From NCBI GenBank assembly GCA_032718475.1, contig JAUCBJ010007816.1, forward strand, positions 14,143 to 78,142: DNA of 64,000 nucleotides. Reading direction: 5' to 3'. This document shows positions 2,686 to 38,589 of this stretch, one piece after another. This DNA is from Nemertoderma westbladi. Its lineage: Eukaryota > Animalia > Xenacoelomorpha. Both the position numbers and the translations under genes were made by a program. The notes beneath the pieces are model-generated. The model was not told the origin of the DNA. It saw only the letters and a program-made list of their open reading frames with translations, and did no database searches. Each line of letters opens with the position of its first letter. Positions within the stretch are counted from its first letter, which is position 1.

Positions 2686-2693
2686 CCTTTTAT
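2686..2693 (-). promoter_or_regulatory. Candidate TATA box of LTR A
   Basis: TATAAAAG in sense, an Inr-like TCATTAGTT ~20-25 nt downstream, AATAAA at 2590-2595. Confidence 0.4.
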
Positions 2694-16560: not shown

Positions 16561-16571
16561 CATATTCCTAC
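16561..16571 (-). promoter_or_regulatory. Non-tRNA primer-binding-site position of A (GTAGGAATATG)
   Basis: Directly follows the 5' LTR CA. Complementary to LTR-internal CATATTCCTAT (plus coordinates 2313-2323 and 31882-31892). Confidence 0.75.
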
Positions 16572-16992
16572 TGAAGCGAAGAGACGTACCTGATATCCTG
16601 CAATATCCTACTGTAAAGTTTGTGAATCAAAACATAATCCGACCTTCTCACCAAAACAGTAAACTCTAAGTAAGCGAATCTATTGCAGTATCGGTCTCTT
16701 ATAACCGGTGAGGCAGAAGACAGTCTACGAACGGACAAACTTCGATAAAACAAAATCCCGCGCAGCGAATCCTAAAATCGGGCTGACTCACTGACGGACT
16801 AAGGGCGCTCGTATACTTTGCCGCGGTGTGATTTATATGTGGGTGAGAGATAGAGGCGCTAGCTAGATGTCTAACTAGCGGGCAAAGTGCAGTACGGACA
16901 AAATTATTTTATATATTTTGAGGTGTAAATAATTCCTAACTCGCGTGTGTCTTGATTCTAACAGCCAAAATCAGTTTTAGATCCTTCATATA
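16572..16992 (-). repeat. 5' LTR of A, segment 1
   Basis: Matches 1295-1715; ends at the B insertion. Confidence 0.95.
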
Positions 16993-19168
16993 TGTTACGG
17001 TATATGGCGCTGTATCCACATTATTAGTCGTTATACTGTATGCAGTATTAGTCCGTTATGCAGTATGCAATATTAGTCCGTTATACTGTACGTAATATTA
17101 GTCCGTTGTGCAGCATGATATTTTAGATAAGGCATAATAACGCAGTGGTATTTAGGTAGGGAAATCAAAACGCCCATATATTTGAAACCATCCATTTTGT
17201 ATAGTATGTAGCCCTACCTACGTAATTTTGTATTAGGATATATGTAGATAGTTCCAGGGTAGCGAGTTTATTCGGACCCTGGATTTTGTGCTTGCTGATA
17301 TTAGTTTGATAGGGCTAGCATAGGGACGCCGTCCTGGCCATTCAGTAGCCAGAGACGTGAACCATTACCATATATGGTAATAATTTGAGCAATAGGGCTA
17401 CAATCCGGCCTCCTTATTGGATTAACTGCTTCCAGGTTGGTCTAATGCTAGCATGGACTGGAGAGCCAATAGGAGAGCGATTGAGTCACCTTATTGCATC
17501 ATCCCATCCGGATCACCTATAAATTGGCGGTGTGCCGGTAAAGCCTCACATGACACATCGATTCTGTTCAACCTGTTTTACTGTTTTTCAATCTGTCACT
17601 GCTGTTGAGCTGTCTCTAATTTTGTATTAGGATATCGTATTTTCTGCAATTTGCTAATTTGATTAATTTCTTGAAATGATTTGCTAGTGCGATTACTTGC
17701 TTGTGTTTCTCAATAATTCCTTCGATTACTGCTAATTACAATTGAACTATGATTTCTACTCTTTGATTAATGGTTCTATGTGATTCCTTTCTGCGCAATA
17801 ATCCTAAGGGATTTCTGAGACTTTCAGACTTTGTGATTTGCATGCGCCGCTACGGTAGCTATTAGCATCATGGAGGGCTAAGGTGCCAGTGGGCGGTGGG
17901 CGCATCGGGGGTTGAGCGACTAGGAGAGAGCGGAGGATTCAAAGCGGGCAACGCTGGCCAGGGTCACCGTTGCGGGCGGGTATCTTGCACTGCGGCACGC
18001 AGACCAATCGCTGGTACAGTATCTAGGGGGCTGATGATCCAGGTTTTGTCTCTATTTAGTATTAGGGGGGCAGGAATTGGGTTAGTTAGGAATCCTAGAT
18101 GTACCCGGGAGAGGCCTGTGCGTATTACAACGTTGAGTGTGGAGTACGAGTAGTGAATTGCACAATTGTAAACTGTGATTTCTAACGCTGATTGGTGTGT
18201 TATTGAAGTGTGCCTAAGATTACGAATGCTTAGATAGGCGCTCTTTTCCCTTTGATTGATTTCTATTTCTTAGCTACAATAATTAGTTATTGATTAGGTC
18301 AAAGTAATACGGCAATTTAGGCTATTACTAGCGAAACCTGTTGCGTGATAAATTAGAATTACGTATTCTGGAACTCTTAGTAATTAGTACGCTGTTAAAT
18401 ATTTGTGACTGTAATTAATTAGTAAAAATTAAGAATTAGTACGCAGCATAGCGGAGAGTAGCTAAGGTAATAATTAGTGTACTGTAAACTATTCATGCTG
18501 AGCGGTTATTTGCATTAGCGGGCAATCAGCTAGAACGCACTATTCGGTACGCACGATACGCTAGTAGTTTTGCTGGCCTAAAGCCAGCCGCGGGCAGTTT
18601 TAGACTCGGGGTGGTATTATCCACGTAGAAACAGTTACTGTACCATTTTTGATATTTTAAATATTCTCACATTCACACATTACGTTAGGGAACCTCCAGT
18701 ATTCGCGATTAGAAAGACGTAGGTAATAGCGTGCTTTAATAGTGATAAAATTAGGCGTAAGAATACTCTGAGTGCAAGGCCTCTCGCACTCGTCTTAAGT
18801 AAGCTTAGGGAGCCGACTCGGGTTTATTGTTTTGGTTATTCCTGCGTGGCTCATAGATTCGAACAGTTAGCTCTCTATCGAGCGATCGGTAGAGAAAGGA
18901 ACAAGCGATTTTGCAGGAGTTGTGTAAATTTAGTAAAATATATTAGTGGACGGCAGATTAGCGCCATCCAACGGTAAGTAGCGGTTTTGTATTTAGCAAC
19001 CCTTACAATTTAGTAATAGCACGCTCCTGATCCCCTTTACTTAACAGTAGAGCAGTTTTTGTGTCTTATTGGATAGGCGAGAGCTTATTAGGTTGGCAGA
19101 AGGATATTAACGGGTATTGGTCTGTTCAACAGTTCTGCTGTTAGTATAGAGGTCGCGGTTGTTTATCA
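16993..19168 (+). repeat. 5' LTR of B (2176 bp, TG...CA)
   Basis: Direct repeat with 29103-31279; candidate TATA (CTATAAAT) at ~17517. Confidence 0.96.
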
Positions 19169-19179
19169 GTAATACGCGC
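19169..19179 (+). promoter_or_regulatory. Non-tRNA primer-binding-site position of B (GTAATACGCGC)
   Basis: Directly follows the LTR CA. Complementary to GTGCGTATTAC (18118-18128) and GCGCGTATTAC (30229-30239). Confidence 0.78.
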
Positions 19180-20448
19180 TTTGTTTGCTGTAGGCTGTAG
19201 CGTACAGTAAATAGAGTATTCTTAGGCTGTTACTTTAGATTACTGATACTTCGTATCAGTAATACGCGCTATTGGCTGTTGCTTGCAGCGGTCAATAGAG
19301 TATTCTTAGGCTGATAGTAATATCATAGTATTAGGCAATAAATTGGAGCACGTGATCGTCTGCTGTAGGCTATAGGCTGGCGTACGGTAGAACATTAAGT
19401 ATATTTATTCTATTAGGCTGTTAGTTTAGATTACTGTATTCACTGGCTGCGTACGATAGTACAGTAGTACATTAGGCTGATTGCTGTTACTGCGTACGGT
19501 AGAAAGGACATTTGTTTTGCCGTACCACACACAGTATCATTAGGCTGTTAGGTTGGTGTACTGTTTTACTTACTGTACTGCATACAGTGAATGTACGGTA
19601 GTGCGTTTTTGCTAATTGCGAATACAGCAGTTCCTTAGGCCTTAGGGCAAACTGTAATTAGTAAGTTTTTTGAAAATTTTAGCTAGGTTTGCGAGAATTC
19701 AGTTTTCGGTCAAAATTATTTTGTAAAATTCTAGAGTTTTGTACCGGTATGTTAGGTAACCGCTTAGTTATTTTATACCATCTGGAGATACATGGCAAGA
19801 CGGAACTTCTGAGTTTGGGGTTCGTGTGGGTCTGCGGGTTCGGTTTGCAATCAGCGAAGGGCCTGAATCTTGGGACGCGGACGTGGAATCTCACAGCAAA
19901 CAAGTTTAGTTGTTCTGTTGGCACCAGTGTGTTTGTGGAAGCAGTAAAAAATTATCGGTTGTTTAACTGCGAAGCTGAACTCAATTTATTAGTTAGGATA
20001 TTTAGGTTTAGCCGGCCATGGTTTTGAATCGCTCAAGTTAGAGAGAGAGTTAGAGAGAGTCGCAATCCGAAGATGTAGCCACGCGCTAGTGGATACATAT
20101 AATATTTGAAATTAAAATTACGTTGATTAGAGCTATATATATAAAATTAGAAATATTCGGGCGGCAAGTTTATTTGAATATTTTGTATTAGATTCAAAGT
20201 TATTTTGTGCTATACCGGTATTTAATACTATATAGTAGCTATATAATAATATTTTTGTTTAAATATTGTGCTAGTATTTGCTATAACTATATACCCCATT
20301 AAATTCACAATATTGCATTGCGAATTTATTTTGACATTTTGGACCAACTGATTATTTGACAAATAATTTGACCGTGTTTCGGTTAAATTATAATTATATC
20401 TCGAACCTTTGCGAGATATTTTGCCGGAAGGCAAACATTATTTAGACT

Positions 20449-23400
20449 ATGAGTGTCTCAGACAAAGAGGCACTAGAGGACAGCTATGAGACGGCGGCTG
20501 GACCGCCGACTGACGATAGCGTAAATATTACTGTTGATGACAATGCCGACTATGACGACGCAGCGAGCGACGCTGACGTAAGTGAACAGGAAGACGAGAC
20601 AGTGACTAGTGAGGAAGAACAGCAGCCTCAGGTAATAGTATTAGGATCCCCTACCGCTACTGATAGGAAGGACTGTACGGCAGCCCGGACAGAGGTGAGT
20701 GATAGGGAGAGTAGTGTAGCAGAAGCGAGAGCCCGGAGCCCGGTTTCCAGACCTGTGGGTATGGTAAGTGCCGTGGTCCCAACGGCTGTAAGGAGTACCC
20801 GTAGTTCCCGAAATAATCCTTCAAGTCCACCGAGTGTAAGTCAGGTAAGTGATAGAGAACTTGATATCGCGATAAAGAAGAAACTTCGCGCGCATGCCGG
20901 ACATATAACTCGGACGGCGGACAAGGTAAGAAAGATGTTAGCTGACTCAGCGAACATCGGGAGGGTAGAGTTAGTAGAGATTAGAAGAGGATATAACTCA
21001 GCGTTATTCAAGCAGACGGAGGAGCTTGCAGTCCTAGCGAAGAAGGCAGTAGAGTCTCAGTCGAGCGACGTGGCGACGAGGATTTACGACAGGGTTTTAG
21101 CAGCCTTGTTGGAGCACCGCGAGTTATCGGAGCGATTCCGACGAGTTAGGATGGAGAACTGGCTGCTATGGGCATCACAAGCGCAGGCGACTCAGGTGAG
21201 TGACGCAGAGTTAAGAGACTTAGTGGAGCGGGAAGAGATCCAAGATAAGGAAGAGCGCCTTTATCAGATGGAAGTTACTAGCTGGCTGATGCAGAATGGA
21301 GTGGTGGTACCAGGTCAGGTGCTACCGACGACGGAGAACATTCAACAGAGGACGTTAACTCCACCCGACGATGCATCCAGAGACAGCGGCGATTCCCAGG
21401 TTAGTCACGCGCGAGGGAAAGTTATATGTGCTAGATCCCTTGTTTCTCACAACTCGGCGGAGGAGAGAAGACGCCGACTAGACGAACAGCAGGCGGAAGT
21501 TTTGCGTGCATCGGAAGCACGGAAGGAAGCTGAGCGGGAACGGGAGCGCGCACGTAAGTTAGACGCAAAGTTGCGGGAGTTGGAAGACAAAGGTAAGCGT
21601 GAGCAAGCGGAACGCGAACGAAAAGAACGCGAACTCCAACTGAAACGCAAACAGAAAGAACGCGAACTCCAACTTGAACGCGAACGGGAAGCGAAGAAAC
21701 GCGAACTCCAACTCGAACGCGATCAGGAAGCGAAGAAACGCGAACTCCAACTCGAACGCGAACAGAAAGAACGCGAACTCGAACTTGAACGCGAACGCAA
21801 GGAACGCGAACTCGAGATCGAGAAGGAGCGACAGATGTTGTATGAAGAAAAGGCGCGACTGGAAGAAGAGAGCGTAGCGAGACGAGCGAGGGAAGAAGAA
21901 GAACGTAAACTGGCGCAGTTGGAAAGTGCGAGATTAAGTTTAGAGAGCGAAGAACGGACTAGGAAGGCGAACGAAATCGCCGAGAAGGGGATGCGAATGA
22001 TCGAAGAATGTGGGGCGAGTGTAGGGACAGAGTTGCGAGAACTGTTCGCACTGCAGAAGGCCGAACAGGAAGCGAGAACTCCGGCTATACGCGAGTCGAC
22101 GACGACCAGAATTCCTATACCCGGTCCAGCTATTACGAGTACACGGATCGTTAAACCATTCTCTACATATCGCACGCCAGTTGGTATTAGTGCTTCACCT
22201 ATCGCCCAGGATCTACGTCATCGGAACGCCGCACCACTGTATACCGAACGTGACAACGGAGAATTTAGAGAAGAAACTCCGACGGGCCGAGTATTTGGCG
22301 AACCGAACCCGAGGGTTTGGAATACACGGACGGAGCGCCGACCCAGTTCGACGGAGAACTTCCGGGTTAAACCGGAAGAGGGATCATATGAGAGACAGCG
22401 GATTACTCAGATAGAGCCGACTATACAACAGAACCCTAGCCAGGAATTTATTACGAGGGATGAGTTAAGTGCTAGTTTAGCGCAAGCTATATCGCCGCAC
22501 ATCCAACCTATAACGGACATGCTTAGCAACCTACGGTTAAAGGAAGCAGCCCAGGTAAGAAGTAACTCTAATCCCAGCAGGCCTGAGTTAGATAAAGTCC
22601 AGCCTAGTCAACGAGTACGTATATCGGAGGAAACTATACCACATAGACCTCAGGTAAGGACGCCTGTCCCGAATATCCATAATCCCAATTTCGAAAATTC
22701 GGCAGAGAAATTTATTGAGGATGCTTGGATCATGGCCTCGGCGCGCAAACCATCGCGAGCGCTAAGGACTGACACCGAGTCAAGCGATGAAGAGGAAGAA
22801 ATGAGACGTCAGAAGTCCCGAAACTATAAGGAAAGAAGGACGGACGCGGAGCAGGTAAGTTGGAACCACCGGGAAAGGACCAGACTTAACAACCCTGCGG
22901 AACTAAACCATTTGTTAACCCGGAACAACGCAACCCTTAGGGACATAGGTAAGTTTGCTGCTAGGCAAGGACTGCCGACGCAACAACCCCAGAAGTTTAT
23001 GGGCAACCACAAGCACTGGAGGACCTTTAAAACCTATGTCGACGAGCAGCTGACCAACAGCACCTTTACTCCCAACGAGAAGTTCAACTATTTGCTTCAA
23101 ATGCTCCATCGAGAACCTAGAGCCATTGCTGATAACTTCGTCGGCAACGAGAGAGCATTTGAGTTAGCGATGAAGACACTTAGTGACATCTACGGGAATA
23201 AAACCAAGATGGCGCAGTCGATAGTAGAAGACTTGGGTAAGGGCGGAAGGATTACAACTCCGTTAGAACTGTTGAACTTAGCGAACGCTATTTCGAACGC
23301 ATTGGACATCTTGAGGACGGTGAATCTACCTCATCATGGTGATCACGCCGAGGTTTTGAAAAGCGTAATAAGACGTCTAAACATGCGTTACCGACAGAAA

Positions 23401-25011
23401 TGGCGCAAATTAGAGAATAAGTTGGAGGGCCAAGGTAAAGTATTGACACTTCAACACATTCATGACATGATAACCACAGATGCGGTAGCAGAGATGAAAT
23501 CAAACTTCTCAGAGGAGAATATGAGGGAGTCTAAACCTGTTACCGGTAAGTCTATGGTAAGTTTTGACGACGACAGGACCACTGTGACATTTAACTCAGT
23601 AGACAGATATAATTCGAGTACCCCAGCCTTTAGATCAGACTCGCGAGTATGGTCAGGTGAGCGGTTAGATAGACCTAGGTTAAAGCAACAGGAGTTGCCG
23701 GATGGATTTGTAGGTTGCCAATACTGTTTACTAAAGGAGGTAAGATCTGACGACCATAAGTTAGATAGTTGCAGACGGTTCAAAGAATTAAATTCGGAAC
23801 AGAGAAGAGTTCAAGTGCGGACGTTGGACACCTGTTGGGCATGTCTTGCGCCAGGCCATGTACGGCGGCAGTGCCCGAACAGCAAGGACGGATGCATAGA
23901 ATGCGGCAGACTACACCACAAGTTGCTACATGCGGATTTCCATACCCCAACGGACCGTTACTTACAGCGAAATCCTCACAGGAAGGGGAGCAAAGAACCC
24001 ATATCGATAAGGAGGAATACGTACACTGGCATCCAGGACGATGGTTATCAACCAGGTTCGTCGGACGAGGATGGCGAGTCGAGCGCGAGAGAAGTGACCT
24101 GCCAAGGTTTCACTGCGGATAGTTCATCGACCAGCGCGCGGACGTATTTATCATCGGCCACGTCGGAAATATTTGGCGTGATTCCGGTGAAACTCACTGG
24201 AGATAAGGGATCTAAGCGAATATATGTGATGTTGGACACTGCGTCCACATTATCGTATATCGACAAGGAAGTGGCGAGAGCTGTTTCTAGCTTCCAGAAC
24301 GCTGAGGAGATCCAAATAGAGTTGAAGTCTATGCACGGGGTAGGAGACCTCAAGGGACACAGAATTTCGGTAGAACTAGATTCCCTACTTCCGAGAGACC
24401 AACACACTCGACAAGAACGGAAAGCTTTGCCATTGGACGGATTTAAGTGTCTAGCTATGAAGGGATTCGGCAGGCAGTTAGGTAAGGTGCCGCCGATGAG
24501 TCCCATAGCACAAGAGTATTTTGACAAGCTCAGGATACCCAGACATCAGGTAGGTTATAGGAATGTTTCTATGTTAATTGGTGCAGAACAGCTGATCGCA
24601 CACCAGATATGGGAAACGAGACCAGCTGAGCCGCATGTCAATGGACCACATGCCCATAGGACCATATTAGGTTGGTATACACGAGTACCCATGTCTTATG
24701 AGTTTACAGGTGGCGACAAGCCAATGAATAGATACGACGAATTACAGCCTATAACTCAACCACCGTTAGTAGAACCACCAGACATAGACGAGTTTAGGAG
24801 AACCTGTATTGACCACTATAGTGACTTTAGTGAGTCGGACGAGGAGTTGATTCCCGATAATGTTAGGTTGTCGGAACCACTTCATAACGACCGGACAGAT
24901 AGTGAACCCGAGGACTACTGTTATCAGACCCGTGGGTCTGGTTCAGCGGCCCACGCTACTTATCTGACTAACGTTTTGACTTATATCAAGTGGCTAAATA
25001 TCGAGACCTAG
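20449..25011 (+). CDS. gag: Gag-protease polyprotein of B (1520 aa)
   Basis: Coiled-coil RELQLER repeats; PQKFMGN..WRTF; triple Cys/His array CQYC/CWAC/CIEC..HHKLLH; protease MLDTAS. Confidence 0.93.
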   Translation: MSVSDKEALEDSYETAAGPPTDDSVNITVDDNADYDDAASDADVSEQEDETVTSEEEQQPQVIVLGSPTATDRKDCTAARTEVSDRESSVAEARARSPVSRPVGMVSAVVPTAVRSTRSSRNNPSSPPSVSQVSDRELDIAIKKKLRAHAGHITRTADKVRKMLADSANIGRVELVEIRRGYNSALFKQTEELAVLAKKAVESQSSDVATRIYDRVLAALLEHRELSERFRRVRMENWLLWASQAQATQVSDAELRDLVEREEIQDKEERLYQMEVTSWLMQNGVVVPGQVLPTTENIQQRTLTPPDDASRDSGDSQVSHARGKVICARSLVSHNSAEERRRRLDEQQAEVLRASEARKEAERERERARKLDAKLRELEDKGKREQAERERKERELQLKRKQKERELQLEREREAKKRELQLERDQEAKKRELQLEREQKERELELERERKERELEIEKERQMLYEEKARLEEESVARRAREEEERKLAQLESARLSLESEERTRKANEIAEKGMRMIEECGASVGTELRELFALQKAEQEARTPAIRESTTTRIPIPGPAITSTRIVKPFSTYRTPVGISASPIAQDLRHRNAAPLYTERDNGEFREETPTGRVFGEPNPRVWNTRTERRPSSTENFRVKPEEGSYERQRITQIEPTIQQNPSQEFITRDELSASLAQAISPHIQPITDMLSNLRLKEAAQVRSNSNPSRPELDKVQPSQRVRISEETIPHRPQVRTPVPNIHNPNFENSAEKFIEDAWIMASARKPSRALRTDTESSDEEEEMRRQKSRNYKERRTDAEQVSWNHRERTRLNNPAELNHLLTRNNATLRDIGKFAARQGLPTQQPQKFMGNHKHWRTFKTYVDEQLTNSTFTPNEKFNYLLQMLHREPRAIADNFVGNERAFELAMKTLSDIYGNKTKMAQSIVEDLGKGGRITTPLELLNLANAISNALDILRTVNLPHHGDHAEVLKSVIRRLNMRYRQKWRKLENKLEGQGKVLTLQHIHDMITTDAVAEMKSNFSEENMRESKPVTGKSMVSFDDDRTTVTFNSVDRYNSSTPAFRSDSRVWSGERLDRPRLKQQELPDGFVGCQYCLLKEVRSDDHKLDSCRRFKELNSEQRRVQVRTLDTCWACLAPGHVRRQCPNSKDGCIECGRLHHKLLHADFHTPTDRYLQRNPHRKGSKEPISIRRNTYTGIQDDGYQPGSSDEDGESSAREVTCQGFTADSSSTSARTYLSSATSEIFGVIPVKLTGDKGSKRIYVMLDTASTLSYIDKEVARAVSSFQNAEEIQIELKSMHGVGDLKGHRISVELDSLLPRDQHTRQERKALPLDGFKCLAMKGFGRQLGKVPPMSPIAQEYFDKLRIPRHQVGYRNVSMLIGAEQLIAHQIWETRPAEPHVNGPHAHRTILGWYTRVPMSYEFTGGDKPMNRYDELQPITQPPLVEPPDIDEFRRTCIDHYSDFSESDEELIPDNVRLSEPLHNDRTDSEPEDYCYQTRGSGSAAHATYLTNVLTYIKWLNIET

Positions 25012-28000
25012 ACATTTTCCAATACAGTGAGGAGGAATTGCAGAAGGAATTGATACGCCAGGACCTCGAGACAGGAGCCAGAACCGTCGAATGGCTGGAT
25101 AGGGACGCAATGGAACCCGGTGGATATGACCTAGCCATGTCTACTGATGAAAAACGGTCGTTGGAGATGATGGAAGACACCATACGTCTGCTACCGACTG
25201 GACATTTTGAAGTTGGAATGTTGTGGCGTCGACAACCTCCTAAGTTGGAGAACAACTACAACTTAGCCTTGAAAAGATTAAACGGAGTAAGGGCTCGGTT
25301 GTTGAAGAATCCGGACATTAGGGAGAAGTATTGCGCCCAGATCAACAACTATTTCGCCAAGGGATTTGCTGGGAAGGTAGAGGACCCTGACTTAGTAACA
25401 GACCAGACTTATTACCTTCCACACCACTATGTGACTCACCCTGACAAGCCAGACAAAGTCCGAGTAGTCAACGACTGCGCAGCAGTCTATAGAGGTATTT
25501 CCCTGAATTCAGAGTTGATGGATGGTCCCAACCTGAATAACTATTTGATTGGAATACTGTTGCGTTTTAGACAGCGGCGATTCGCATTTACTTGTGACAT
25601 CGAGGCGATGTTCCACCAGGTAAGAGCCTGTAAGGCAGACCAAGATAGCCTTCGCTTTCTCTGGTACGAGAATGAAGACTTATCCGGCCCAGTGGTTACA
25701 TACCAAATGTACGTTAGGATATTTGGCGCCCGCGATAGTCCAAATGGCACGCTGTTTGTTCTAAAGAAAACGGCAACAGCCCAGATTGGTAAGTATCCAG
25801 TAGAAGTAATCGAGTCCATCTTGAGAAACTTCTATATGGACGACGGATTGGTGTCCAAGGACACGGCGGAACAAGCCATAGAAGTGGCTCACGACCTGCA
25901 AGAGTGCTTGGCTACAGGGGGTTTTCCTCTGACCAAGTTCACTACGAACTCGGAGGCCCTATTAGAGTCGTTCCCGGTGAAAGATCGCGGGAGCGGAGAC
26001 ATTGAATTGGGGTTAGAACCAATTCCCATGGCGCGAGTACTGGGACTCGCTTGGAACCCGAACTCAGATAAGTTCCAGGTAAGAGTTAGATTTGAGCCCA
26101 GTAGCCCAGACAAAGTTTTGACTAAGAGGATTTGCTTATCGACATTGAGTAGACTATTTGACCCGATGAACTTTATCAGTCCGGTTATATTACAGGCACG
26201 AGCGTGCATGAGGAAAATTTGGTTGTCCGACGTAGAGTGGGACGAACCAATATCTCCTATACATGCAAAGCAGTGGAGAGAGTGGGAAGCCGAGTTGCAT
26301 CTATTGAAAAATATAGATGTACCCCGTTCCTACTTTCCGAATCAGTTGGTATTTCCAACTGATTTAGAGCTGCATCTGTTCAGTGACGCAAGTGACACCG
26401 GCTTTGGTATGGTAGCCTACCTTCGCCGAGAGGTAAGTCAGGACAAATTTGAGACGGCCTTTGTGACTTCTAGATCAAAGACAATGCCGGTCAAATACAT
26501 GACTGTCCCTCGTGCAGAGTTACAGGCGGCTGTAGTTTCAGTCGAGGTAAGTAAGCAAATAACTGAGGAATTAGACACGACATTGACCTTATTTTATTGG
26601 ACGGACGCATCCTTGGTGTTAGTATACATTGCGGCCGACAATATTGCACTAAAGACATTTGTGGCCAATAGACGCGCTCAGATCGTTGATTTTTCGACGA
26701 AGGAACAATGGAGACATTGTCCGGGAGTGTTGAACCCGGCCGACATAACTTCGAGAGGTGCAATGCCGGCGGAATTCTGTCAGGAAGAGTCGCAGGAGTT
26801 TTGGTTGCATGGACCTGATTTTCTAACGAGGACACAGGAACATTGGCCAGAGCGACTAAAGATAGTGACCAATCCGATGCCTGAAGATGCAGAAGTCAAA
26901 GTGGAGAAAGTCTCTAAGTCGAAGTCTAAAGCCAAACTTAAGTCATTGGAGCGGCTTGAAGAGTCATTGGAGCGGCCTGAAGAGTCATTGGAGCGGCTTG
27001 AAGAGTCATTGGAGCGGCCCGGAGACCTGTCAGACCAACAGACTTACGTGACTACTAGGTCAGGAAGGGTAAGTTACGACATAAAACCACCCTTACAGAC
27101 TAGACGACAGTCACAATTGGTAAGTGACGGACAGAAAATGACCGACACAATGGATCCTTTGGTTTCCAAACCTGCGGGTTTGGATTCGAAACTTCCATCA
27201 ATTAGCGGACAACCGTCGCTGGCATTAGAGTCATGCAGTATTTATGACAAATTACTAAATTCGTCTGCCTCTTGGCTGACAATTTGTAAAAGAACTGCGT
27301 GGTTAAGCTGATACGTTTCGTACCTTTGTTTAAAACATTCGAAACATTTGAGAGAACCATTGAGCACCAATAGTGAGCGAATTCGGAAATTGAAACAACC
27401 TCTGACAGAGGATGAGATTGATCAAGCGGAATTAAGGCATTTGAAACATTATCAAATGTGTGCCTTCCCTAAAGAATTCCATCTATTATCGGCTCAACGA
27501 CCAGTTCTCTATAAACCCCTGAGAAAATGGAGTCCATTAATCCATAAGGGTTTGATTTGTCATAGATCGAGGATCCAGACTGTCGACATAAACTCACAGT
27601 TTCGATTCCCAGTGATAATCCCTAGTTACCCGATAGAATTGCAAAGAGCGATTCTATGGGATATACACAAGAGGTTGCATCACGCGGGAAAGTTACACTG
27701 TTTGTCGGCAGCGAGACAGCGATTCATCCTATTGCAGCCAAGCAGGGCAGTAGGCACTATGTACGACGCCTGTCTGGTTTGCAAGAGAGTGAACGCCAGA
27801 GTATTGGAACAGGAGATGGCTGAACTCCCGGAAGCGAGAGTGCAGGCATATGACCCACCCTTTACGAACACAGGGGTGGATTGTTTTGGTCCGATTGAAG
27901 CAAAGAATGGACGGCTGACCCACAAGCGATGGGGTCTGCTACTGACATGTATGGCTAGTAGAGCCATACACATTGAGCGTGTGGCAGACATGTCGACCAA

Positions 28001-28499
28001 ATCTCTGCTCCTGGCCTTGAAGAGATTTATGGCCAGGAGAGGACTAGTAAAGGCGTTCTACTCCGATAAGGGTACAAACTTTGTCGGAGGGAATAGCGAG
28101 TTGAACGCGGCTCATAAAGCGGCACAGAATAAGGAAATTTCTGCAGCACTTTTGCCGCAACGAGTAGAATGGAGATTCAATACTCCTGAAAGTCCTTGGA
28201 GAGGAGGAAGTTGGGAGCGTTTAGTTCGCTCTGTAAAACAGGCCATTGCCAAAACATTGCCTGTGAACAAACAACTTACCGACGACGAACTGGTCACAGC
28301 TTTCATTGAAATCGAGCATACCCTAAACTCGAGGCCGATAGCTATGTTGCCAGACGGTGTTGCATTAACGCCGAATCATTTGCTAATGCAGAGTCCAGCA
28401 TTTCTTGTGCCGGCATCAGAACCCATTAGTGCCGACCTATATAGTCGTAAAACCTATATAGACGGACGCCGTCAACGGAGTCGACTGGAGGTAGATTAG
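24990..28499 (+). pseudogene. pol: pol of B (RT, RNase H, integrase); in-frame stop at 27309-27311, C-terminus deleted
   Basis: YYLPHH, FYMDD, HLFSDAS, NPADITSRG, GVDCFGP, SDKGTNF, GGSWERLVRS, LNSRPI. Confidence 0.95.
26941..27019 (+). repeat. Four 21-bp tandem repeats containing TTGGAGCGG
   Basis: (GAGTCATTGGAGCGGCYTGAA)x~4, encoding SLERLEE/SLERPEE. Confidence 0.9.
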
Positions 28500-29102
28500 T
28501 GTATCTGGGAAGGGGACAAAAGAGAGGAGCGAGCCCAAAGAACCCAGGAGCGGGTCAATAATACATTATGGCACAGGGCGACAGACTCTAGATATATACA
28601 TCATCGTCGCTCTGATGTATATTGTAGCATTTGAAAATTTTCGACTAGACTCGTATATACTAGTTGAGTTATTTGAATTTATATTATGAAAGAGGCGAAG
28701 GAAGTGATTGGGGAGACAAACCTGCGGGTTTGGCTTACTCCTTTCACTTGCCCTAGCAAAATTTTTATATTTGATTTTGTATGTAGTAATCATTATGTAG
28801 TAAGAATGAACGAGAAACAATATTTTGTAAATTTAATTTGTATGTAATAATCGTTAAACAATGAGAGAAACAATATTTTGTAAATTTAATTTGTATGTAA
28901 TAATCGTTAAACAATGAGAGAGATAATATTTTGTAAATTTAATTTGTATGTAATTCATTATGCAATATCTATGGCAATATTTGTAAATAGTAGAATTATT
29001 ATGTTATTTAGATTGGTTGGAAGAAATTTATTTGTTTTGTATACATCACCTTATACTCTTCTACAATTGGAGGGAAACATTATATGATTTCCCTTGGAGC
29101 GG

Positions 29103-31279
29103 TTTTACGGTATATGGCGCTGTATCCACATTATTAGTCGTTATACTGTATGCAGTATTAGTCCGTTATGCAGTATGCAATATTAGTCCGTTATACTGTA
29201 CGTAATATTAGTCCGTTGTGCAGCATGATATTTTAGATAAGGCATAATAACGCAGTGGTATTTAGGTAGGGAAATCAAAACGCCCATATATTTGAAACCA
29301 TCCATTTTGTATAGTATGTAGCCCTACCTACGTAATTTTGTATTAGGATATATGTAGATAGTTCCAGGGTAGCGAGTTTATTCGGACCCTGGATTTTGTG
29401 CTTGCTGATATTAGTTTGATAGGGCTAGCATAGGGACGCCGTCCTGGCCATTCAGTAGCCAGAGACGTGAACCATTACCATATATGGTAATAATTTGAGC
29501 AATAGGGCTACAATCCGGCCTCCTTATTGGATTAACTGCTTCCAGGTTGGTCTAATGCTAGCATGGACTGGAGAGCCAATAGGAGAGCGATTGAGTCACC
29601 TTATTGCATCATCCCATCCGGATCACCTATAAATTGGCGGTGTGCCGGTAAAGCCTCACATGACACATCGATTCTGTTCAACCTGTTTTACTGTTTTTCA
29701 ATCTGTCACTGCTGTTGAGCTGTCTCTAATTTTGTATTAGGATATCGTATTTTCTGCAATTTGCTAATTTGATTAATTTCTTGAAATGATTTGCTAGTGC
29801 GATTACTTGCTTGTGTTTCTCAATAATTCCTTCGATTACTGCTAATTACAATTGAACTATGATTTCTACTCTTTGATTAATGGTTCTATGTGATTCCTTT
29901 CTGCGCAATAATCCTAAGGGATTTCTGAGACTTTCAGACTTTGTGATTTGCATGCGCCGCTACGGTAGCTATTAGCATCATGGAGGGCTAAGGTGCCAGT
30001 GGGCGGTGGGCGCATCGGGGGGTTGAGCGACTAGGAGAGAGCGGAGGATTCAAAGCGGGCAACGCTGGCCAGGGTCACCGTTGCGGGCGGGTATCTTGCA
30101 CTGCGGCACGCAGACCAATCGCTGGTACAGTATCTAGGGGGCTGATGATCCAGGTTTTGTCTCTATTTAGTATTAGGGGGGCAGGAATTGGGTTAGTTAG
30201 GAATCCTAGATGTACCCGGGAGAGGCCTGCGCGTATTACAACGTTGAGTGTGGAGTACGAGTAGTGAATTGCACAATTGTAAACTGTGATTTCTAACGCT
30301 GATTGGTGTGTTATTGAAGTGTGCCTAAGATTACGAATGCTTAGATAGGCGCTCTTTTCCCTTTGATTGATTTCTATTTCTTAGCTACAATAATTAGTTA
30401 TTGATTAGGTCAAAGTAATACGGCAATTTAGGCTATTACTAGCGAAACCTGTTGCGTGATAAATTAGAATTACGTATTCTGGAACTCTTAGTAATTAGTA
30501 CGCTGTTAAATATTTGTGACTGTAATTAATTAGTAAAAATTAAGAATTAGTACGCAGCATAGCGGAGAGTAGCTAAGGTAATAATTAGTGTACTGTAAAC
30601 TATTCACGCTGAGCGGTTATTTGCATTAGCGGGCAATCAGCTAGAACGCACTATTCGGTACGCACGATACGCTAGTAGTTTTGCTGGCCTAAAGCCAGCC
30701 GCGGGCAGTTTTAGACTCGGGGTGGTATTATCCACGTAGAAACAGTTACTGTACCATTTTTGATATTTTAAATATTCTCGCATTCACACATTACGTTAGG
30801 GAACCTCCAGTATTCGCGATTAGAAAGACGTAGGTAATAGCGTGCTTTAATAGTGATAGAATTAGGCGTAGGAATACTCTGAGTGCAAGGCCTCTCGCAC
30901 TCGTCTTAAGTAAGCTTAGGGAGCCGACTCGGGTTTATTGTTTTGGTTATTCCTGCGTGGCTCATAGATTCGAACAGTTAGCTCTCTATCGAGCGATCGG
31001 TAGAGAAAGGAACAAGCGATTTTGCAGGAGTTGTGTAAATTTAGTAAAATATATTAGTGGACGGCAGATTAGCGCCATCCAACGGTAAGTAGCGGTTTTG
31101 TATTTAGCAACCCTTACAATTTAGTAATAGCACGCTCCTGATCCCCTTTACTTAACAGTAGAGCAGTTTTTGTGTCTTATTGGATAGGCGAGAGCTTATT
31201 AGGTTGGCAGAAGGATATTAACGGGTATTGGTCTGTTCAACAGTTCTGCTGTTAGTATAGAGGTCGCGGTTGTTTATCA
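29103..31279 (+). repeat. 3' LTR of B
   Basis: Starts TT (TG in the other copies); preceded by TTGGAGCGG. Confidence 0.96.
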
Positions 31280-32542
31280 ATATATATAATTACTAGGTCC
31301 GGTGTGCATTTTACAAATATTCTAATTTTATAGCTTGTAGGTCCAATACTCACGAATGATAAGGCTCCTTCCCCTTTTGTGTATTTCCAGGACTCAAATT
31401 CAGGCATAAGGTTAATACTACGCCCGGAATTCGGCAATTTAATTTACCAGGTCCCTAATACTAAGAAGAAATGTGTTAGTTTACTACAGTAGGCGTACAG
31501 TTACAAAATAGCTAGCCTGGCGTTCTATCTAGAATTTTGGTTGCCTAGCTGGGCACGGCAACTCCCTATCAGAATGTCGGCGGGGACACGGTAGATGTTA
31601 GTATCCCTAATAGCCTCAATTTATATGCGCCTAGCAGTAAACTGCCCTACCGCCTGAACGGTACAATCCCAATTCAGGTAAAAACACAGTAACCCTTCCT
31701 GGCCTACAAGTTCTAATGCAAATGAACACCGTTGTACTACAAACAGCCACCGACGCACCTATACCTGGCAAATGAGTTAGGCGTACAGCTTGCTGCACCC
31801 TACTAATGTGTATGCCTTGTACTGGTGTGCCTGTGTCCTATCTGTGTACTAGTATCTCTCTGCCTGATCTCTTCCTCCCCCATAGGAATATGAAGGTCTA
31901 CTGCGGGTTTTTCTGAATTAAGACAGTACAGTCCCTAAATGTAATTTTAGCGCACAGCATGTCAGTACCTCTACCTTCGATCTTAGGTCTTACGCTTAGG
32001 TAGCAAGGCATCGAACGCTGTCTAACCTTTCAGGCGATGGGCAAATAACTAAGAATGGGTATTGCGGGTTGTCTCCTTTCTACATTCCTCCGATATTCCC
32101 GTCTATTGCCGCGGTCCGATGTCTAGCCTGCCATCTGTCTCACAGTTGTGTTCACCATGGTGAAACTTAGTAAAAGCAGATGTAACAAATACTTTCTAAC
32201 TTTATTACAAACAAATGATAACTAATATACAATAAATGTAACAAGAAGATTAAGTAAGATAGAATAAGAAGAAGATAACTAATGAACAAAATCGCACCTT
32301 TTATAGCAAATTTGTGCTGCTAACAATCTAGATAAATCTCGATTGTTCTATGAGCTCTACTAGGTTTTTAAAGATAATCATTGGTCCAGCAAACACGTAT
32401 CTTGCACGACATTGATTGCTATCTAATAACTGCAATCGCATTGGTTAATCTACCTTAAGCAGATACAATTAATTCGTAGCGGTTAATTCAAATGAGTTGA
32501 AACTTAGCACAAAAAATAATTCACACTTGCTAGGATTCGAAC

Positions 32543-34696
32543 AATAAATTTATTATAATAATCTTAAATCAAAAATTAAAAAGATGTGCACCAAAAATAA
32601 CAAAATTAATTCCGCCACCACACAAATATCATCGGGCCTACCACCAAAGCACCGGAAAGATAAGTTGAAGCTCAGAGGCAAGGGATCAGTACCGATCAGG
32701 AAGGTCAGACCCCCGCAGACCGGCACCGTCCCCAAATCCGAGCGCCCTCCATGGCCGCCTACCACCACGCAGGCACAGGGAGCTCGAGCGCAGAAGCGCG
32801 AACTGTAAGCGCCTCCGCACTCCCCCTAACACACAAGCGAGGCCTCGCTCACGCATCCCCCGCTGCCGGGCCACGAGGGTCTCAGCGAGGTGGCGGATCA
32901 GAATATCGGCCTCCTTGCACCACACCCCGTCGGTGGTTCCGACTAGGGGGGTGAAGGAGATCCGACGATCTTCGCACACCCCGCTGTAGTGGACCATCTT
33001 GGAACGAACTCGCTGCTCGAGTACGGAGTCCAGGGACCGATTAAGGTATGAGGGGGCGTCGGCGTTAACAATCGCAATGTCGAAAGACGCCACCCTCTGT
33101 TCGGCCCAGACTCCCCTCGCCAGGAGATCCGCCCTAACTCCACCCACCTCGCGGCCCTGTCTGTCCAGGTAGCCGGACGCCAACGTAACCTCCCGCTGGA
33201 CGCATGAGCCCCCGAACGCGGACGCAATGAGGTCCCCGAACACCTCCCTCACCTCGTTGTGCCGCTTTATGATCAAGCCCCCCGACTTGCAATTAAGGGC
33301 GTGGGACGTCGAGAACGACTCCCCACACCCCTCGCACTTTGCCGGGAGGCCCGGCGGCGTCCGTCCATACCTCAAGGCGAGGTCGTCCCGGAACACCTCT
33401 GGGTCAAGGTCAGTGTGGTCGACCACAGAGGGCTGCGCCGTCAGCCATCCCCCAGTCTTATGGGACATCGTACGTTCGACGGTGCGTCGTCGTGTCGAGG
33501 GAATGGCTTGGAGTGCGTTCATCTGTATCACCTTGTAGACCGCATCCTGAGTGATCCGGCTCTCGGCGAGGGCGGAGGCGAGACAGGCTGCGTGGTCCGC
33601 GACATGGAGGGGGCGACCCGTAGTCATGGCGTCAACCACCCTGACCGTTCCAGCGAGAGACGCCTCACGGGCGGGGCCACGGCGCACCGTCGGATCACGG
33701 ATCCCAATGCCGCCATGTCGAACTGGGAGGAGGAGCAACTCCTCGTCGACAGACCCAGGCAAACCAAACAGAGCCGGGATAAACTGGCGCAACAGTGCCG
33801 AACGGATGGGCGCCACATCCTCCACCTCTGTGTCCACCACCCGCAACAGGTAATCCCACTCTGCCTGAACACAGCGGGTCAACCCAGTGTGGGCAGTCTG
33901 GGGGAACTCCTCGGCCACCTCAGCGAGACGACCAATACTCCAGACCCACCCAGAGACCTTCTCGGCGATAAACTCGCGCAAACCCAGTGAGTCGCCCACA
34001 TAACCCCCCAGGAATCGGTGCCCGGGAACAATCTGGACCCCCGAGCCCCCAAACATCTGCCGTGCTCGCTCCGCAACCTCGGGTTTGACCACCAAGTAGG
34101 ACTTGGTGGGCTCCGGGTTATAACCTATTCGGGGTCCGACACGAAGCAGCTCCTCCCACCAAGCCATCACCCCCTCGAGTGAACCTGCCGAGGAGGCATC
34201 ATCGGCATACCAACACTGCTTCTGTGAGAGAGTTGGGCTGCCAGGTTCAATCAACGGCGGGTCCATGGGTTGAGTCAATGGTGGATCAGTGGATGGAGTC
34301 GACGGCAAGGTGCCGGGTGGAGGCAAAGGCGGGTCTGCGGTTGCAGTCGATGGTGAGTCAGATGGTAGAGTCAACGGCGAGTCGGCGGGTCGAGTCGACA
34401 ACGGATCGGCTGGTAGAGTCGACGGCGGGTCAGTGGGTTGAGTCGATGGCGCGTCAGCTGGTTGAGTCGGCATTGGGTCAGACTCGGCGGGTTGAGTCGA
34501 TGGAGGGACAGCGGGTGGAGTCAACAGTGAGACGGACTCGGCGGGATGTGTTGACGGTGGGTCAGCGGGTGGAGTCGACAGTGGATCGGACTTGGCGGGT
34601 TGAGTCGATGGTGGGTCAGCGGGTGGAGTCGACAGTGAGTCGGTCTCGGTGGGTTGAGTCGACGGTGAGTCTGCGGGTGGAGCTGACGGTGGGTCA
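32543..34696 (-). mobile_element. CRE-like non-LTR retrotransposon (RLE endonuclease type), 5'-incomplete
   Basis: 14-bp TSD GCTAGGATTCGAAC (32529-32542, 34697-34710). ORF with WYADD, RFLGGYVG, CEGC..H...C, RHNEVR, RADL..FDI. Confidence 0.88.
32686..34524 (-). CDS. P/S/T tandem repeat fused to RT C-terminal half, zinc knuckle and restriction-like endonuclease
   Basis: 612-aa ORF; RT motifs upstream of YADD are absent. Confidence 0.8.
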   Translation of the reverse strand: MTPPAVPPSTQPAESDPMPTQPADAPSTQPTDPPSTLPADPLSTRPADSPLTLPSDSPSTATADPPLPPPGTLPSTPSTDPPLTQPMDPPLIEPGSPTLSQKQCWYADDASSAGSLEGVMAWWEELLRVGPRIGYNPEPTKSYLVVKPEVAERARQMFGGSGVQIVPGHRFLGGYVGDSLGLREFIAEKVSGWVWSIGRLAEVAEEFPQTAHTGLTRCVQAEWDYLLRVVDTEVEDVAPIRSALLRQFIPALFGLPGSVDEELLLLPVRHGGIGIRDPTVRRGPAREASLAGTVRVVDAMTTGRPLHVADHAACLASALAESRITQDAVYKVIQMNALQAIPSTRRRTVERTMSHKTGGWLTAQPSVVDHTDLDPEVFRDDLALRYGRTPPGLPAKCEGCGESFSTSHALNCKSGGLIIKRHNEVREVFGDLIASAFGGSCVQREVTLASGYLDRQGREVGGVRADLLARGVWAEQRVASFDIAIVNADAPSYLNRSLDSVLEQRVRSKMVHYSGVCEDRRISFTPLVGTTDGVWCKEADILIRHLAETLVARQRGMRERGLACVLGGVRRRLQFALLRSSSLCLRGGRRPWRALGFGDGAGLRGSDLPDRY

Positions 34697-34896
34697 GCTA
34701 GGATTCGAACTCGATACTTACTACACGAATTTCTAACGCTTAACCAACTGAGCTACTGAACTACTTGAATAATCGTTGTACAAATAGATATAGTAAATAC
34801 AAATGAGGACTTAATGTAATCTTTATAGCAAATTAATTCGAACAAAATAAAATTTTGAAAATCCACGGCTTTATGAGGATATAATTCTATAGTAAT

Positions 34897-35128: not shown

Positions 35129-35132
35129 TTAA

Positions 35133-36238
35133 GCTTTGCTATTCAGGGGAGTCTAGGTTCCTGAATACTGTGGCCTTGTTAGAGGCCAAGATGTCCTGAG
35201 AATTAGCCAGCTTTTGGTGCAGCTCCTCTAGAACCTTGGCGGCTTGTACAAATGTACAGATTCATTTAGTAATTCTTGGAGCTGACGATGTTGTGCAATC
35301 TGGGATTGTCGTTGTTGGCAGCTTCGTCATGCAACTGCTTTATGCTGCTGTAATTGTTGCCGTTGTTGTTATTGTTTTTCTAATGCTTGCCGTTGTTGCT
35401 GATTTTGTTCACTCACTATCTCCCTTTGATTACTTAGTCGATTTAATGCAAAATCGATATTATTTAATTGTTTCATTTTATTATTTACAGTCTCCTGCAT
35501 GGCTCGCAGGTTTAACGAAAACTCGTTTAATCTTTCACTATATACTGTAGAAGTTTTAAGTTGCAGATTTTAAGTCTGATTACTCCCTACAGTAGTTGTC
35601 GTAATACCAAGGGGTGTTATTTTGGATTGAGTTACATTAGCCGCTGATGTCATATTCGGCTTAGAAGGATTTATTAATATGCCAGTGCGTGGGGAATCAG
35701 GTTTGGCGCCGCTAAAGGCGTGTTAACAGGTTTGAAAAAGTCGGAGTCGGAGTCGGTTTTGGGTCCAAGGGGATTTTTAATGGGATTAGCGGGATGCTGA
35801 GGTGGCAGTTCAGGCAAAAAAAAAGGAAAGTAAATTTTCTTCGGCCGATAGGCCAGGGATTATGCACAAAGTCTGACGACTTAATTCCAGTGCGGTCCCA
35901 CCAGAACTTTACTCCCAAGAGGAAACTCCAGTACTCATTTAGCTACCACTTAAGGATGCAAGGCAGAGATGCGCCCTGGCTGGTCCCTTTAAAGCATTCA
36001 TGCCGAAACGAAAACTGCCCTGGCCCATGTGAGGATCGAACCCACAACCTATGGGAGATGTGAATTCAATGCAACCACTACACAAAGGCAGGCAGTGGCG
36101 TTCAGCTCGTTCCAAGCGTCTTCCGCTTCTGGAAGTCCGAGATTTATCCGATGATTTGTCAAACTCGTCGGAAGATGTATAGCACTCGAGCTGTTTGGTC
36201 CCCTTTTCCTTTAACTGAGTGTCCGATTGTTGTTTTTC
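35133..36238 (-). pseudogene. Degraded low-complexity gag-like coding remnant (continues at 57412-57992)
   Basis: Q-rich and E/R/K-rich frames with CGA>TGA type stops on both sides of element D. Confidence 0.35.
35814..36094 (-). mobile_element. tRNA-derived SINE with a Nin/Deu-like central domain
   Basis: A-box TGTGTAGTGG, B-box GGTTCGATCC, body TCTGCCTTGCATCCTT..GCTAAATGAGTAC, T-rich tail. Imperfect TSD GTGGC(A)GTTCAG at 35802-35813 and 36095-36105. Confidence 0.75.
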
Positions 36239-36816
36239 TGTTAGCGAATTCAATTCCGCCAACCACCCCATAAAGTTGGCCAAGCGGGGCCTTTAAGCAA
36301 TATTGGGAGTACGAGGTTGATTGCCAATCAACCTCGTATCACCCCAATAAACGGGGCGACAAACCCCAAAGGAACACAAACACAGCGGGGGTCAGAGATT
36401 ACACCTCCAGGAGGGAGAGAGTGACAGTAGCGGGGGGAAGCACTCCCAGAGAGATGGGAGGGCGAGAATTGGGTTATTAGCCAATGGGAGGCAGGCATCC
36501 ACTGAGTAATGTAATACGGCCAACCAGTGCAATATATTACCAGTTACTGTTCCTCATTTATTCACTTAGTTAGTCAGTTTAGTTAGGGCAGAATGGGAAC
36601 TCTTATTACCGTCTACTGCCGCCACCATCATTCAGCTATTTACCGGTACACTTACTTAACATTCAATAAACTGTGTTTATACTTTATGCAATTATATTAA
36701 ATCCTATATTCATACATACCGATCAATCAACAACCCCAGAACTCTTTTCACACACACACGGCGGGGACGCGTAGATAAGATAACCGGATAAATCGGGATT
36801 CTCGGATCCCGTCACA
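36239..36816 (+). repeat. 5' LTR of D
   Basis: TGTTAG start; CCAAT-like boxes, Inr TCAGTT ~36574, AATAAA 36665. Matches the 3' LTR up to 36784; the end at CA 36816 is inferred from the following GTAATAAGA. Confidence 0.8.
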
Positions 36817-38589
36817 GTAATAAGACTCCAGCAGTTGCCCTAAAAACGATAGAAACTAACTGACAGTCACTAGCCACTAAGTAAAGACAAAGATGAGTCG
36901 AGAAGGAGAGACGACACCGCCGCGTACCCCGGACGGCGTCCTAACGATCCGCGAGGCCGCGACGCGATGGTACCGACCCACGACACCGGATCCGTCGACC
37001 ATAGGCGATCCGGCAATCCAAACGGAGGGGGGCCGTCTACAGCGAGAGGATGAGTCGAGAGAGGAGAGAGACGAGTCGACACACGACGGCGGTCGACGTG
37101 CCGATGTCGCCGGCCAGCCACAGGCCGAGGGCGATGGACGGCCCACCGGAACGGCGACGGTGGGGCCGCCGGTACGACGCCGGACACGGAGGGATAGAGG
37201 AGACGTCGGCGACGAGGACGTCGGGGTCAGCGACTGGCTCCGACGAGCCTACAACACATCCGGAAGCAACTAAGAGAAGCCAAAGGAGGGGCCAAGATAG
37301 ACCAGGTGAAGCTAGAGAAGCGGCTAGGTGAGTCGAATAAACATTTTGATTACTTAGTGCGCTTTGGGCAGGAAGAACTAGCCAATGAGAGAGCGAGAGG
37401 GGTTGCCACCGAACTGTTTGAACTGTGGGAATGCAGGGGTATGGAGCCTGGTGTAGTGTAAATAGGGCCATACTTAGTCGATGCCCGGGGAATTAAATTG
37501 GTGGGTTGGAAGAGACCGCAGGAGGGCGAATCCGAGGTTAACCCCGAGGATTCAGTCTCGTCGGTCGGCGAAAATTCCGGAAGGCTGGGGAAAGTTAGTA
37601 GGACGGGAAGGTGGAGGGAGTCCGTCGCAACCGATAAGTCTGCTACATCCTCCGCAAAAGTAAGACGGGTGCTAGAAATAGATCTGGCGTGCCAACTCGA
37701 TCTGGCGGCGCTAGACCAGAGAGAATTAGAGAGACAGTTGGAAGAAGGGAGTGCGTTATTAGAGAAGGAGAAAGAACTGGCTAGAGAGAACAGAGAGAAC
37801 GCCGAAAAGGTCACGAGAAGTTTTAAGGAGTGTGAGGAAATAGGGAGGATAGAAAGGAAGGAGCTTGAAGAGCGTGAGGCGAGAGAGCAGAATAGACGTG
37901 AAGAGCGTGAGGCGAGAGAGCAGAGTGAGCGAAAAGAGCGCTAGGCGAGACGACTGGAGAGAGTTGTGAGAGAGGCGGAGTTAGCGGATCAGAGTTCACG
38001 AGAAGATAGAGAGAGAGAAATAACGGGAAAGCATGTGCGGGATGATATGCACGCCCGGTTGAGGGGGCTTATGCTATATCAAGCCAAACAGAAGCGCCGC
38101 CTAGAACTGGCGCAGATGGGGCTGTCAGAGAGCGAGGCTGGCTCGAGTAGTATTTACGAGGAGCCAGGAGTTAGGGAAACATTTATTAATACCCCACTTA
38201 CAGGGACCAGACGACAGACCCAAGACTGGTGTGACCGTACGGGCAGGGGGGAGTAATAATGATAATAATACAGTAGAGGACGTTAATATTAATAGTACCA
38301 TAGTGGATAACCCTAATCAAACTTTTGTTGCAGGAAATAACATTTTGTCCGATGGTAGTAATTTAAATCCGAGCCATTCTAATATAAACGTAGGAAATAA
38401 TTCAAATAATCTAAATCTGAATTTACAAAATAATTCAAATAATCTTATTTCGAACGAACAAAATAATCCCGTTTCTAATTTAGGCGTGCAAAATAATTTA
38501 ATTGATTTGGAGGATTTAATTGATTTAACAGATAATACTGGTAATGGTCCTATTAATATGAACGTGGCGGACGTGCATAGCCCGGGCAA

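Follow-up and report, generated by a model that had tools for sequence, protein, structure and literature searches.

How does a retrotransposon begin minus-strand DNA synthesis when the site behind its 5' long terminal repeat (LTR) does not match the end of a tRNA? The question is raised by a 64-kb window (the whole stretch analysed here, 64,000 nucleotides of contig JAUCBJ010007816.1 from Nemertoderma westbladi), within which lie nested LTR elements, among them A, B, C and D. LTR retrotransposons fall into three main groups, of which BEL/Pao is one; A, B and D belong to it, with Pao-type pol and gag domains between their LTRs. Behind the CA that ends each of their 5' LTRs, the primer-binding site (PBS) starts with GT; no TGG is found there, as the sequence-only reading had noted, nor is an 18-nt complement to the 3' end of tRNA-Arg or tRNA-Gly. 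To judge by their letters, these sites cannot pair with the CCA-bearing 3' end of a mature tRNA, and inspection behind the three LTR ends showed no other primer site. We think it likely that A, B and D prime minus-strand DNA with a segment of their own LTR, probably in a manner resembling that of Tf1 of fission yeast. The LTRs, sites and segments concerned are the following.

1295..3112, minus strand: 3' LTR of A, TA...CA, 1818 bp, purine tract before it and ATTAC duplication after it
2313..2323, minus strand: predicted primer segment of A, 3' LTR copy, 1018 nt from the LTR end
16561..16571, minus strand: PBS of A, immediately after the LTR-end CA, beginning GT
16572..16992, minus strand: 5' LTR of A, 3' piece; a PBS-like decoy stands some 40 nt short of its end
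16993..19168, plus strand: 5' LTR of B, TG...CA, inserted in the 5' LTR of A, duplication ATATA
18118..18128, plus strand: predicted primer segment of B, 5' LTR copy, one G-U
19169..19179, plus strand: PBS of B, immediately after CA, beginning GT
29103..31279, plus strand: 3' LTR of B, TATA-like box at 29628, no AATAAA
30229..30239, plus strand: predicted primer segment of B, 3' LTR copy, 11 Watson-Crick pairs, 1040 nt from the LTR end
31280..32542, minus strand: 5' LTR of A, middle piece
31882..31892, minus strand: predicted primer segment of A, 5' LTR copy
34697..34891, minus strand: 5' LTR of A, first piece
36239..36816, plus strand: 5' LTR of D, 578 bp, end inferred, AATAAA at 36665, decoy at 36771-36780
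36601..36609, plus strand: predicted primer segment of D, 9 Watson-Crick pairs, 207 nt from the LTR end
36817..36825, plus strand: PBS of D, beginning GT, with a leader behind it that pairs with the LTR upstream of the segment
56866..57411, plus strand: 3' LTR of D, broken off 32 nt before the inferred end, segment at 57228-57236

That each PBS pairs with the LTR of the same element had been proposed from the letters of the window, and all motifs quoted for it were found at their coordinates; those of A read as quoted only on the minus strand (16571-16561; 2323-2313 and 31892-31882). The lengths reported also held, with 10 Watson-Crick pairs plus a terminal G-U in A, 11 pairs in B and 9 in D, as did the registration of the 3' end of the segment on the first base after CA in all three. 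The 3' end of the segment lies 1018 (A), 1040 (B) and 207 nt (D) from the LTR end. The PBS of B forms only 9 unbroken pairs with the 5' LTR copy of the segment. LTR ends are defined in A and B by both copies together with the 5-bp target duplications.

Matches of this length were rare in controls. Dinucleotide shuffles of the LTR reached the observed match in 10/5000 trials for A, 2/5000 for B and 12/5000 for D. When three PBSs were set against five LTRs (15 cells), matches of 9-11 appeared in cognate cells only, while non-cognate cells did not exceed 6 at offset 0 or 7 at offset 1; a wrong-orientation control gave 9 matches in 2 of the 15 cells. Across the window, 49 of 3787 CA positions have a 9-nt anchored complement no more than 2.2 kb away. 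Since 9-nt matches thus arise otherwise, D taken alone is the weakest case. With the 3' LTR of D broken off at 57411, the LTR end of this element is still inferred. Three features speak for its position: a long helix surrounding the 9-bp core, in which the leader pairs with LTR sequence upstream of the segment (-26.6 kcal/mol), a PBS-like decoy, and the GT that follows CA. A short hairpin stands right before this inferred end.

The sequences preceding the segments and other copies of B bear on how these letters change. A and B share the motif ACCCG-N4-AGRCCT just before segments that are otherwise unrelated, which makes the segments positionally homologous. The segment of C (59456-59466) differs from that of B at 2 of 11 positions, the preceding 14 bases being identical. 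Contigs from four sequencing runs were compared with B over 16400-19700; its LTR family is abundant in runs X1 and X3. In both of these runs, which cover position 18119, the contigs read the base C there at full depth and do not show the G-U variant. Five readings behind a B-type LTR end, from two other runs, have different PBS letters and keep GT after CA, none having TGG; they also skip the duplicated leader of B, in which a tandem duplication created a second CA-PBS copy at 19259. The PBS letters of B are therefore not fixed behind one LTR end. A freely drifting primer fits this variation better than a fixed host RNA, and the variation is not yet covariation. The segment of C is compatible with one of these B variants as a partner, but the B segment also pairs with that variant through G-U, and the case was left uncounted.

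Whether complementarity is kept among related elements was examined in relatives. Protein searches returned 360 matches, all of them distant relatives, with identities of up to about 44% for B and 35% for D; the closest database matches stand at about 40% (B) and 34% (D). A metagenome scan gave 80 loci; the LTR copies end together in 16 of these, and 14 were counted after removal of a duplicate (L006, of L003) and of a locus whose repeat ends at the contig end, within apparent coding sequence (L056). The unanchored scan over the full set of 80 was noisy, and a locus counted only when its two LTR copies agreed on the end; families rather than loci were taken as the unit since many of the contigs may share few hosts. 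A scan of viral contigs gave no match.

At offset 0, only 2 of the 14 loci gave a match. When offsets of up to 6 were admitted, 10 of the 14 showed a match of 10-15 nt, starting 0-3 nt after CA, to the junction left by a predicted GT-AG intron of 67-97 nt. Shuffled PBSs given the same offset freedom (40 per locus) reached the match in 0/40 trials in eight loci and in 1/40 in two. One more locus (L053) has a spliced-junction match through its 5' LTR only, which brings the junction type to 11 of 14; another (L037) has a contiguous 10-nt match through the 5' LTR, as in A, B and D; the remaining two (L030 and L051) carry a TGG-type PBS and no self-match. The 14 loci thus comprise eight spliced families, one contiguous and two of tRNA type. 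Ten further loci, outside this count, have only the LTR start known: three show spliced matches of 10-13 nt (L007, L010, L047), one a contiguous 10-nt match (L035), four no match (L011, L034, L066, L075), and two are ambiguous (L072, L078). In two of them, at L007:1535 and L010:473, the 13-nt junction matches span longer introns (256 and 200 nt), with inferred LTR ends.

Altogether, complementarity persists with different letters in 12 families (A, B, D and nine others), as the sequence-only reading had observed for the three in the window. Pairing starts with GT in 11 of the 12 self-type families and with AT in one, so that the predicted primer ends in AC or AU. Related arrangements were sought in A, B and D themselves and rejected: no splice-junction match of at least 10 nt at offset 0 extends or replaces the contiguous match, the junctions of the intron-like elements in A and B do not pair with the PBS (by eye), and no GT stands directly behind the segment to serve as a splice donor that would set the primer end.

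A further element tracks the PBS. The final 120 nt of the LTR contain a PBS-like decoy that follows the PBS of its family (mean score 7.2 vs 5.2; permutation 0/100000), the own LTR being best or joint best in 8 of the 12 families. In A, D and L002-L052 the distance from decoy to LTR end is 33-103 nt; the decoy of D is at -46, in the region where most families carry one, and B has none in the last 120 nt of its LTR. The 3' piece of the 5' LTR of A (16572..16992) holds a stretch that pairs with the bases immediately 3' of the primer segment. An AATAAA lies between segment and decoy in D, L005 and L029, and pairing of the two could hide the 5' poly(A) signal.

We envisage the following cycle. The segment would lie within the repeated (R) region, at an internal position of the transcript and not at the 5' terminus, would fold onto the PBS and would be cut on its 3' side just behind the final AC (AU in A); as in Tf1, the enzyme would probably be the RNase H of the element itself. 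The strong-stop DNA, about 1.0 kb long in A and B and 0.2 kb in D, would jump to the 3' R; the segment itself would be inherited from the 3' LTR copy, and plus-strand synthesis would copy the primer into a new PBS. With the primer copied into the PBS at each cycle, the letters could drift freely yet stay matched, even to a spliced junction. With strong-stop DNA ending just behind that junction, the intron of the relatives would not be lost. A, B and D would represent the intron-free form within a larger group using a splice-assembled primer. The segments lie about 370 (A), 600 (B) and 70 nt (D) downstream of TATA-like boxes. Measured from the transcript start that these boxes would predict, the distances are about 340, 570 and 40 nt, so the RNA does not seem to begin with the segment. 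The scheme needs a poly(A) site downstream of the segment, and D has an AATAAA there.

Several observations weigh against self-priming of this kind, in which priming and cleavage are predicted from sequence. The terminal pair of A is G-U in both LTRs, the B PBS variants of the other runs could not be assigned to LTR partners, and the 2-3 nt offsets of the relatives were admitted only after offset 0 had given the low count reported above. The segments stand far from the TATA-like boxes, unlike in Tf1, and about 1 kb separates segment from LTR end in A and B. The sole AATAAA in the LTR of A is upstream of the segment and B has none, so that only variant hexamers follow. Intron-like elements of 67 nt (A) and 74 nt (B and C) lie downstream of the segment and should be lost if they were spliced in packaged RNA; the donor of the A and B elements may serve a subgenomic RNA for extra 3' open reading frames (ORFs). 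The helix of D, with a pair probability of 0.83 when folding starts at 36564, falls to 0.13 when it starts at 36595, and the segment-PBS helix is missing from both global folds of B (P 0.0). One Tf1-type flanking helix is present in A; side helices of the Tf1 kind are not family-specific across the 12 families (permutation 34410/50000 and 43169/50000). Finally, D is a long branch placed elsewhere in two of three trees. The proposal of a self-priming BEL/Pao group therefore stands as regards own-LTR complementarity, now extended to 12 families, and is incomplete as regards likeness to Tf1, with its internal segments and lack of general side helices.

The trees bear on the idea, also put forward earlier, that A, B and D form one lineage. 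Named clades of BEL/Pao include BEL, Pao, Tas, Suzu, Sinbad and others. In a FastTree analysis of 72 of the 80 loci plus 18 other rows, D fell apart from A and B. An IQ-TREE analysis of 40 rows placed A and B together (support 100) within a group of self-type loci (99) from which the tRNA-type loci were excluded, D joining another long branch. When that branch was removed (26 rows), A, B and D formed a group (96) beside the contiguous locus L037 (89). A single lineage is thus recovered in one tree and not in the two others, and the grouping is provisional. D is independently linked to the B family by an extra 3' ORF with CCHC knuckles that it shares with C. The direction of change may have been from spliced to contiguous. 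The broader scenario, in which an animal BEL/Pao branch swapped tRNA priming for an internal, AC-ending and mostly splice-built self-primer, A, B and D being derived, intron-free members with a decoy-gated primer up to 1 kb away, seems to us evenly balanced between right and wrong.

Of the other explanations, the one that survives best, although we hold it to be improbable, is that the pairing is structural (a switch in packaging, translation or polyadenylation) and that another nearby primer is used. The tracking of the PBS by the decoy gives the segment two alternative partners, D folds into either of them, and both the 1-kb distance and the poly(A) problem of A and B vanish if no cut is made. 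A structural helix, however, need not begin at the first base after CA, nor at GT, and need not equal a splice junction letter for letter; the primer site it requires was not seen behind the LTR end. More doubtful by a clear step is priming in trans by the element's own RNA, either a short LTR transcript or a second genome copy ending at the segment. This would dispense with the long-range fold, which folding of B did not predict, and with an R of 1 kb; in other runs the LTR family is highly abundant. Yet A, B and D have no terminator or poly(A) signal just upstream of the 3' end of the segment, nor a splice donor after it, so that a spliceosomal half-reaction cannot make the end.

Only a shade less credible is priming by a host RNA, such as a tRNA half or fragment, a piRNA or another small RNA, the LTR match being secondary. 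Half-tRNA priming is known in Copia lineages, according to the portion of PMC6317226 consulted. Against it, the 12 families have 12 PBS sequences, each matched in its own LTR, and in eight of them the complement arises only on removal of a predicted intron, a pattern that priming by host RNA would leave unexplained; even a single LTR end can be followed by differing PBS letters. ARAGORN called no tRNA gene in the window, and none was found in the 43 of 80 loci scanned. A tRNA-like stretch in the LTR of A, called by neither ARAGORN nor Rfam, does not match the PBS and was discarded as a primer. Chance matching within LTRs rich in A and T, together with a wrongly placed LTR end in D, is the least credible explanation. 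In its favour are the window-wide count of 9-nt complements and the inferred end of D; it is refuted for A, B and the relatives by three independent low shuffle rates, by the fixed LTR ends of A and B and by the recurrence of the pattern in 12 of 14 outside loci.

The remaining features of the four elements are as follows.

1448..1514, minus strand: 67-nt GT-AG intron-like element of A, at -220 from the LTR end, junction unpaired with the PBS
6527..15274, minus strand: gag/pol ORF pieces of A, with DUF1759 and Peptidase_A17
19259..19269, plus strand: second CA-PBS copy in the leader of B, a tandem duplication skipped by contigs of other runs
20446..28496, plus strand: gag/pol ORF pieces of B, with DUF1759, Peptidase_A17 and Integrase_H2C2
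31085..31158, plus strand: 74-nt GT-AG intron-like element of B, at -195 from the LTR end, with a conserved counterpart in C
47319..52274, plus strand: pol pieces of D, with Peptidase_A17 and integrase
58388..60594, minus strand: 3' LTR of C, a B sister about 90% identical, with its PBS outside the window

Peptidase_A17, a Pao-type pol domain, was found in A, B and D, DUF1759 in A and B, and integrase families in B and D; the best protein homologs have the same domain families. Pol identity is 60% between A and B and 31% between D and B, and each of the three coding regions is split into several ORF pieces. With a Pao-type pol, A, B and D do not belong to the Ty3/gypsy chromoviruses that include Tf1/sushi. 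Target duplication, purine tract and terminal repeats are complete in A (minus strand, LTRs of 1818 bp starting with TA, not TG, in both copies) and in B (plus strand, LTRs of about 2.18 kb, 99.7% identical to each other). D, on the plus strand, has a 5' LTR of 578 bp if its inferred end is correct, and retains the purine tract; the 3' LTR end and target duplication are lost. C is the 3' end of a B sister element. A purine tract ending GGAGCGG directly before the LTR is common to A, B and C (3089-3112; 29080-29102), and despite it the LTRs of A and B do not align.

The 5' LTR of A is interrupted twice, by B and by a 5'-truncated non-LTR element (32543-34696, minus strand) in which the end of a reverse transcriptase and a restriction-like endonuclease motif are seen by eye (no Pfam match). 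This element has a 13-14 bp duplication and sits in the tRNA-like stretch, which has A-box- and B-box-like motifs and lies at about 2915-2985 in the 3' LTR; a relative, 68% identical, is found at 43811-45152. D itself is located within a coiled-coil-rich coding region of a further element (35200-36238; 57412-58387, minus strand), whose apparently abutting flanks suggest that a small deletion took the 3' LTR end and target duplication of D. The gag of D carries a 6.2-kb insertion (39827-46058) bounded by 37-bp inverted repeats, with internal tandem repeats, which is probably a DNA transposon. Beyond the Peptidase_A17 region, residues 692-893 of the pol ORF of D (47319-50396) match RVT_1 and DUF6451, probably a captured piece of another retroelement. 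Between pol and 3' LTR, C and D have extra ORFs of 967 aa (61098-63998, minus strand) and 618 aa (54326-56179, plus strand), each with three CCHC knuckles, weakly homologous to one another (E 5e-9) and without a Pfam match; A has a different-looking ORF of 331 aa at 4499-5491, and B lacks a corresponding region.

We regard the pairing as a real feature that appears to bring a known type of mechanism to a superfamily not described to use it, with covariation across families. In the parts consulted of the papers cited here, demonstration of self-priming is limited to Ty3/gypsy (Tf1), with predictions for some plant lineages. No report of it in BEL/Pao came to light, in a search that partly missed the slash spelling and left subscription journals, Repbase and supplements mostly uncovered; the main text of PMC3118150 does not mention PBS, tRNA or priming. 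If self-priming holds, tRNA-independent priming would have one more origin, with a third superfamily using a self-primer; this primer would be internal to the RNA, have a fixed end dinucleotide and be splice-built in relatives, tying replication to host splicing. It makes exact predictions for the RNA end on strong-stop DNA, and annotation tools that demand a tRNA PBS would miss or mis-trim such elements.

A Cer element of C. elegans reportedly encodes its own tRNA-like primer. The Belpaoviridae (Semotivirus), whose replication is poorly understood and described as tRNA-primed in the ICTV profile, have LTRs 0.2-1.2 kb long and a PBS of 18 nt that is the complement of tRNA-Arg or tRNA-Gly sequence (PMC8742986). 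The elements described here resemble them in their LTRs, in a gag with DUF1759 and a pol with Peptidase_A17 and integrase in BEL order, in the purine tract before the 3' LTR and in the 5-bp target duplications, and the relatives L030 and L051 have a TGG-type PBS. They differ in the LTRs of A and B (1.8 and 2.2 kb) and in the lack of a tRNA site in A, B and D. For the plant Copia elements TAR, Houba and Osr-1 and the chromovirus Tcn1, self-priming is predicted if at least 10 nt of complement to the 5' LTR start 0-5 nt after the LTR end (PMC6317226, as far as consulted); A (10 pairs from offset 1) and B conform to this rule, and D, with 9, does not. TAR and Tcn1 belong to other superfamilies and hosts, and the same part of that paper does not mention a splice-built primer. 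The fungal Copia element GalEa also lacks a tRNA PBS and has a conserved hairpin site; its partner is conserved and lies 12-41 nt downstream in the leader, whereas that of A, B and D is upstream in the LTR and varies between families (PMC5445492, in part).

The closest parallel is with Tf1 and its kin. Tf1/sushi elements are described as self-priming, and Tcn1 and TAR are predicted to be so (PMC6317226, PMC4600332, bioRxiv 10.1101/2022.12.06.519325, PMC3601003 and PMC5445492, in part), and the self-primer of Tf1, 11 bases long, is cut by RNase H (PMC7175516, likewise). In Tf1 and Tf2 of Schizosaccharomyces pombe, in Tj1 and in Tf1/sushi generally, the PBS directly follows the LTR-end CA, as in A, B and D (excerpts of PMC7175516, PMC4600332 and bioRxiv 10.1101/2022.12.06.519325), and in the same excerpts the Tf1/sushi elements, like ours, have a complement of about 11 nt to their own 5' LTR and no tRNA site. 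Tf1/sushi elements are Ty3/gypsy chromoviruses, whereas A, B and D are BEL/Pao. The Tf1 primer, as described there, is the first 11 bases, while the segment of A, B and D is apparently internal, up to 1 kb from the LTR end; the three-duplex "pretzel" reported for Tf1 is not general in the BEL/Pao families studied here. Also unlike Tf1, the BEL/Pao relatives would build their primer across a predicted intron, and the primer would end in AC or AU.

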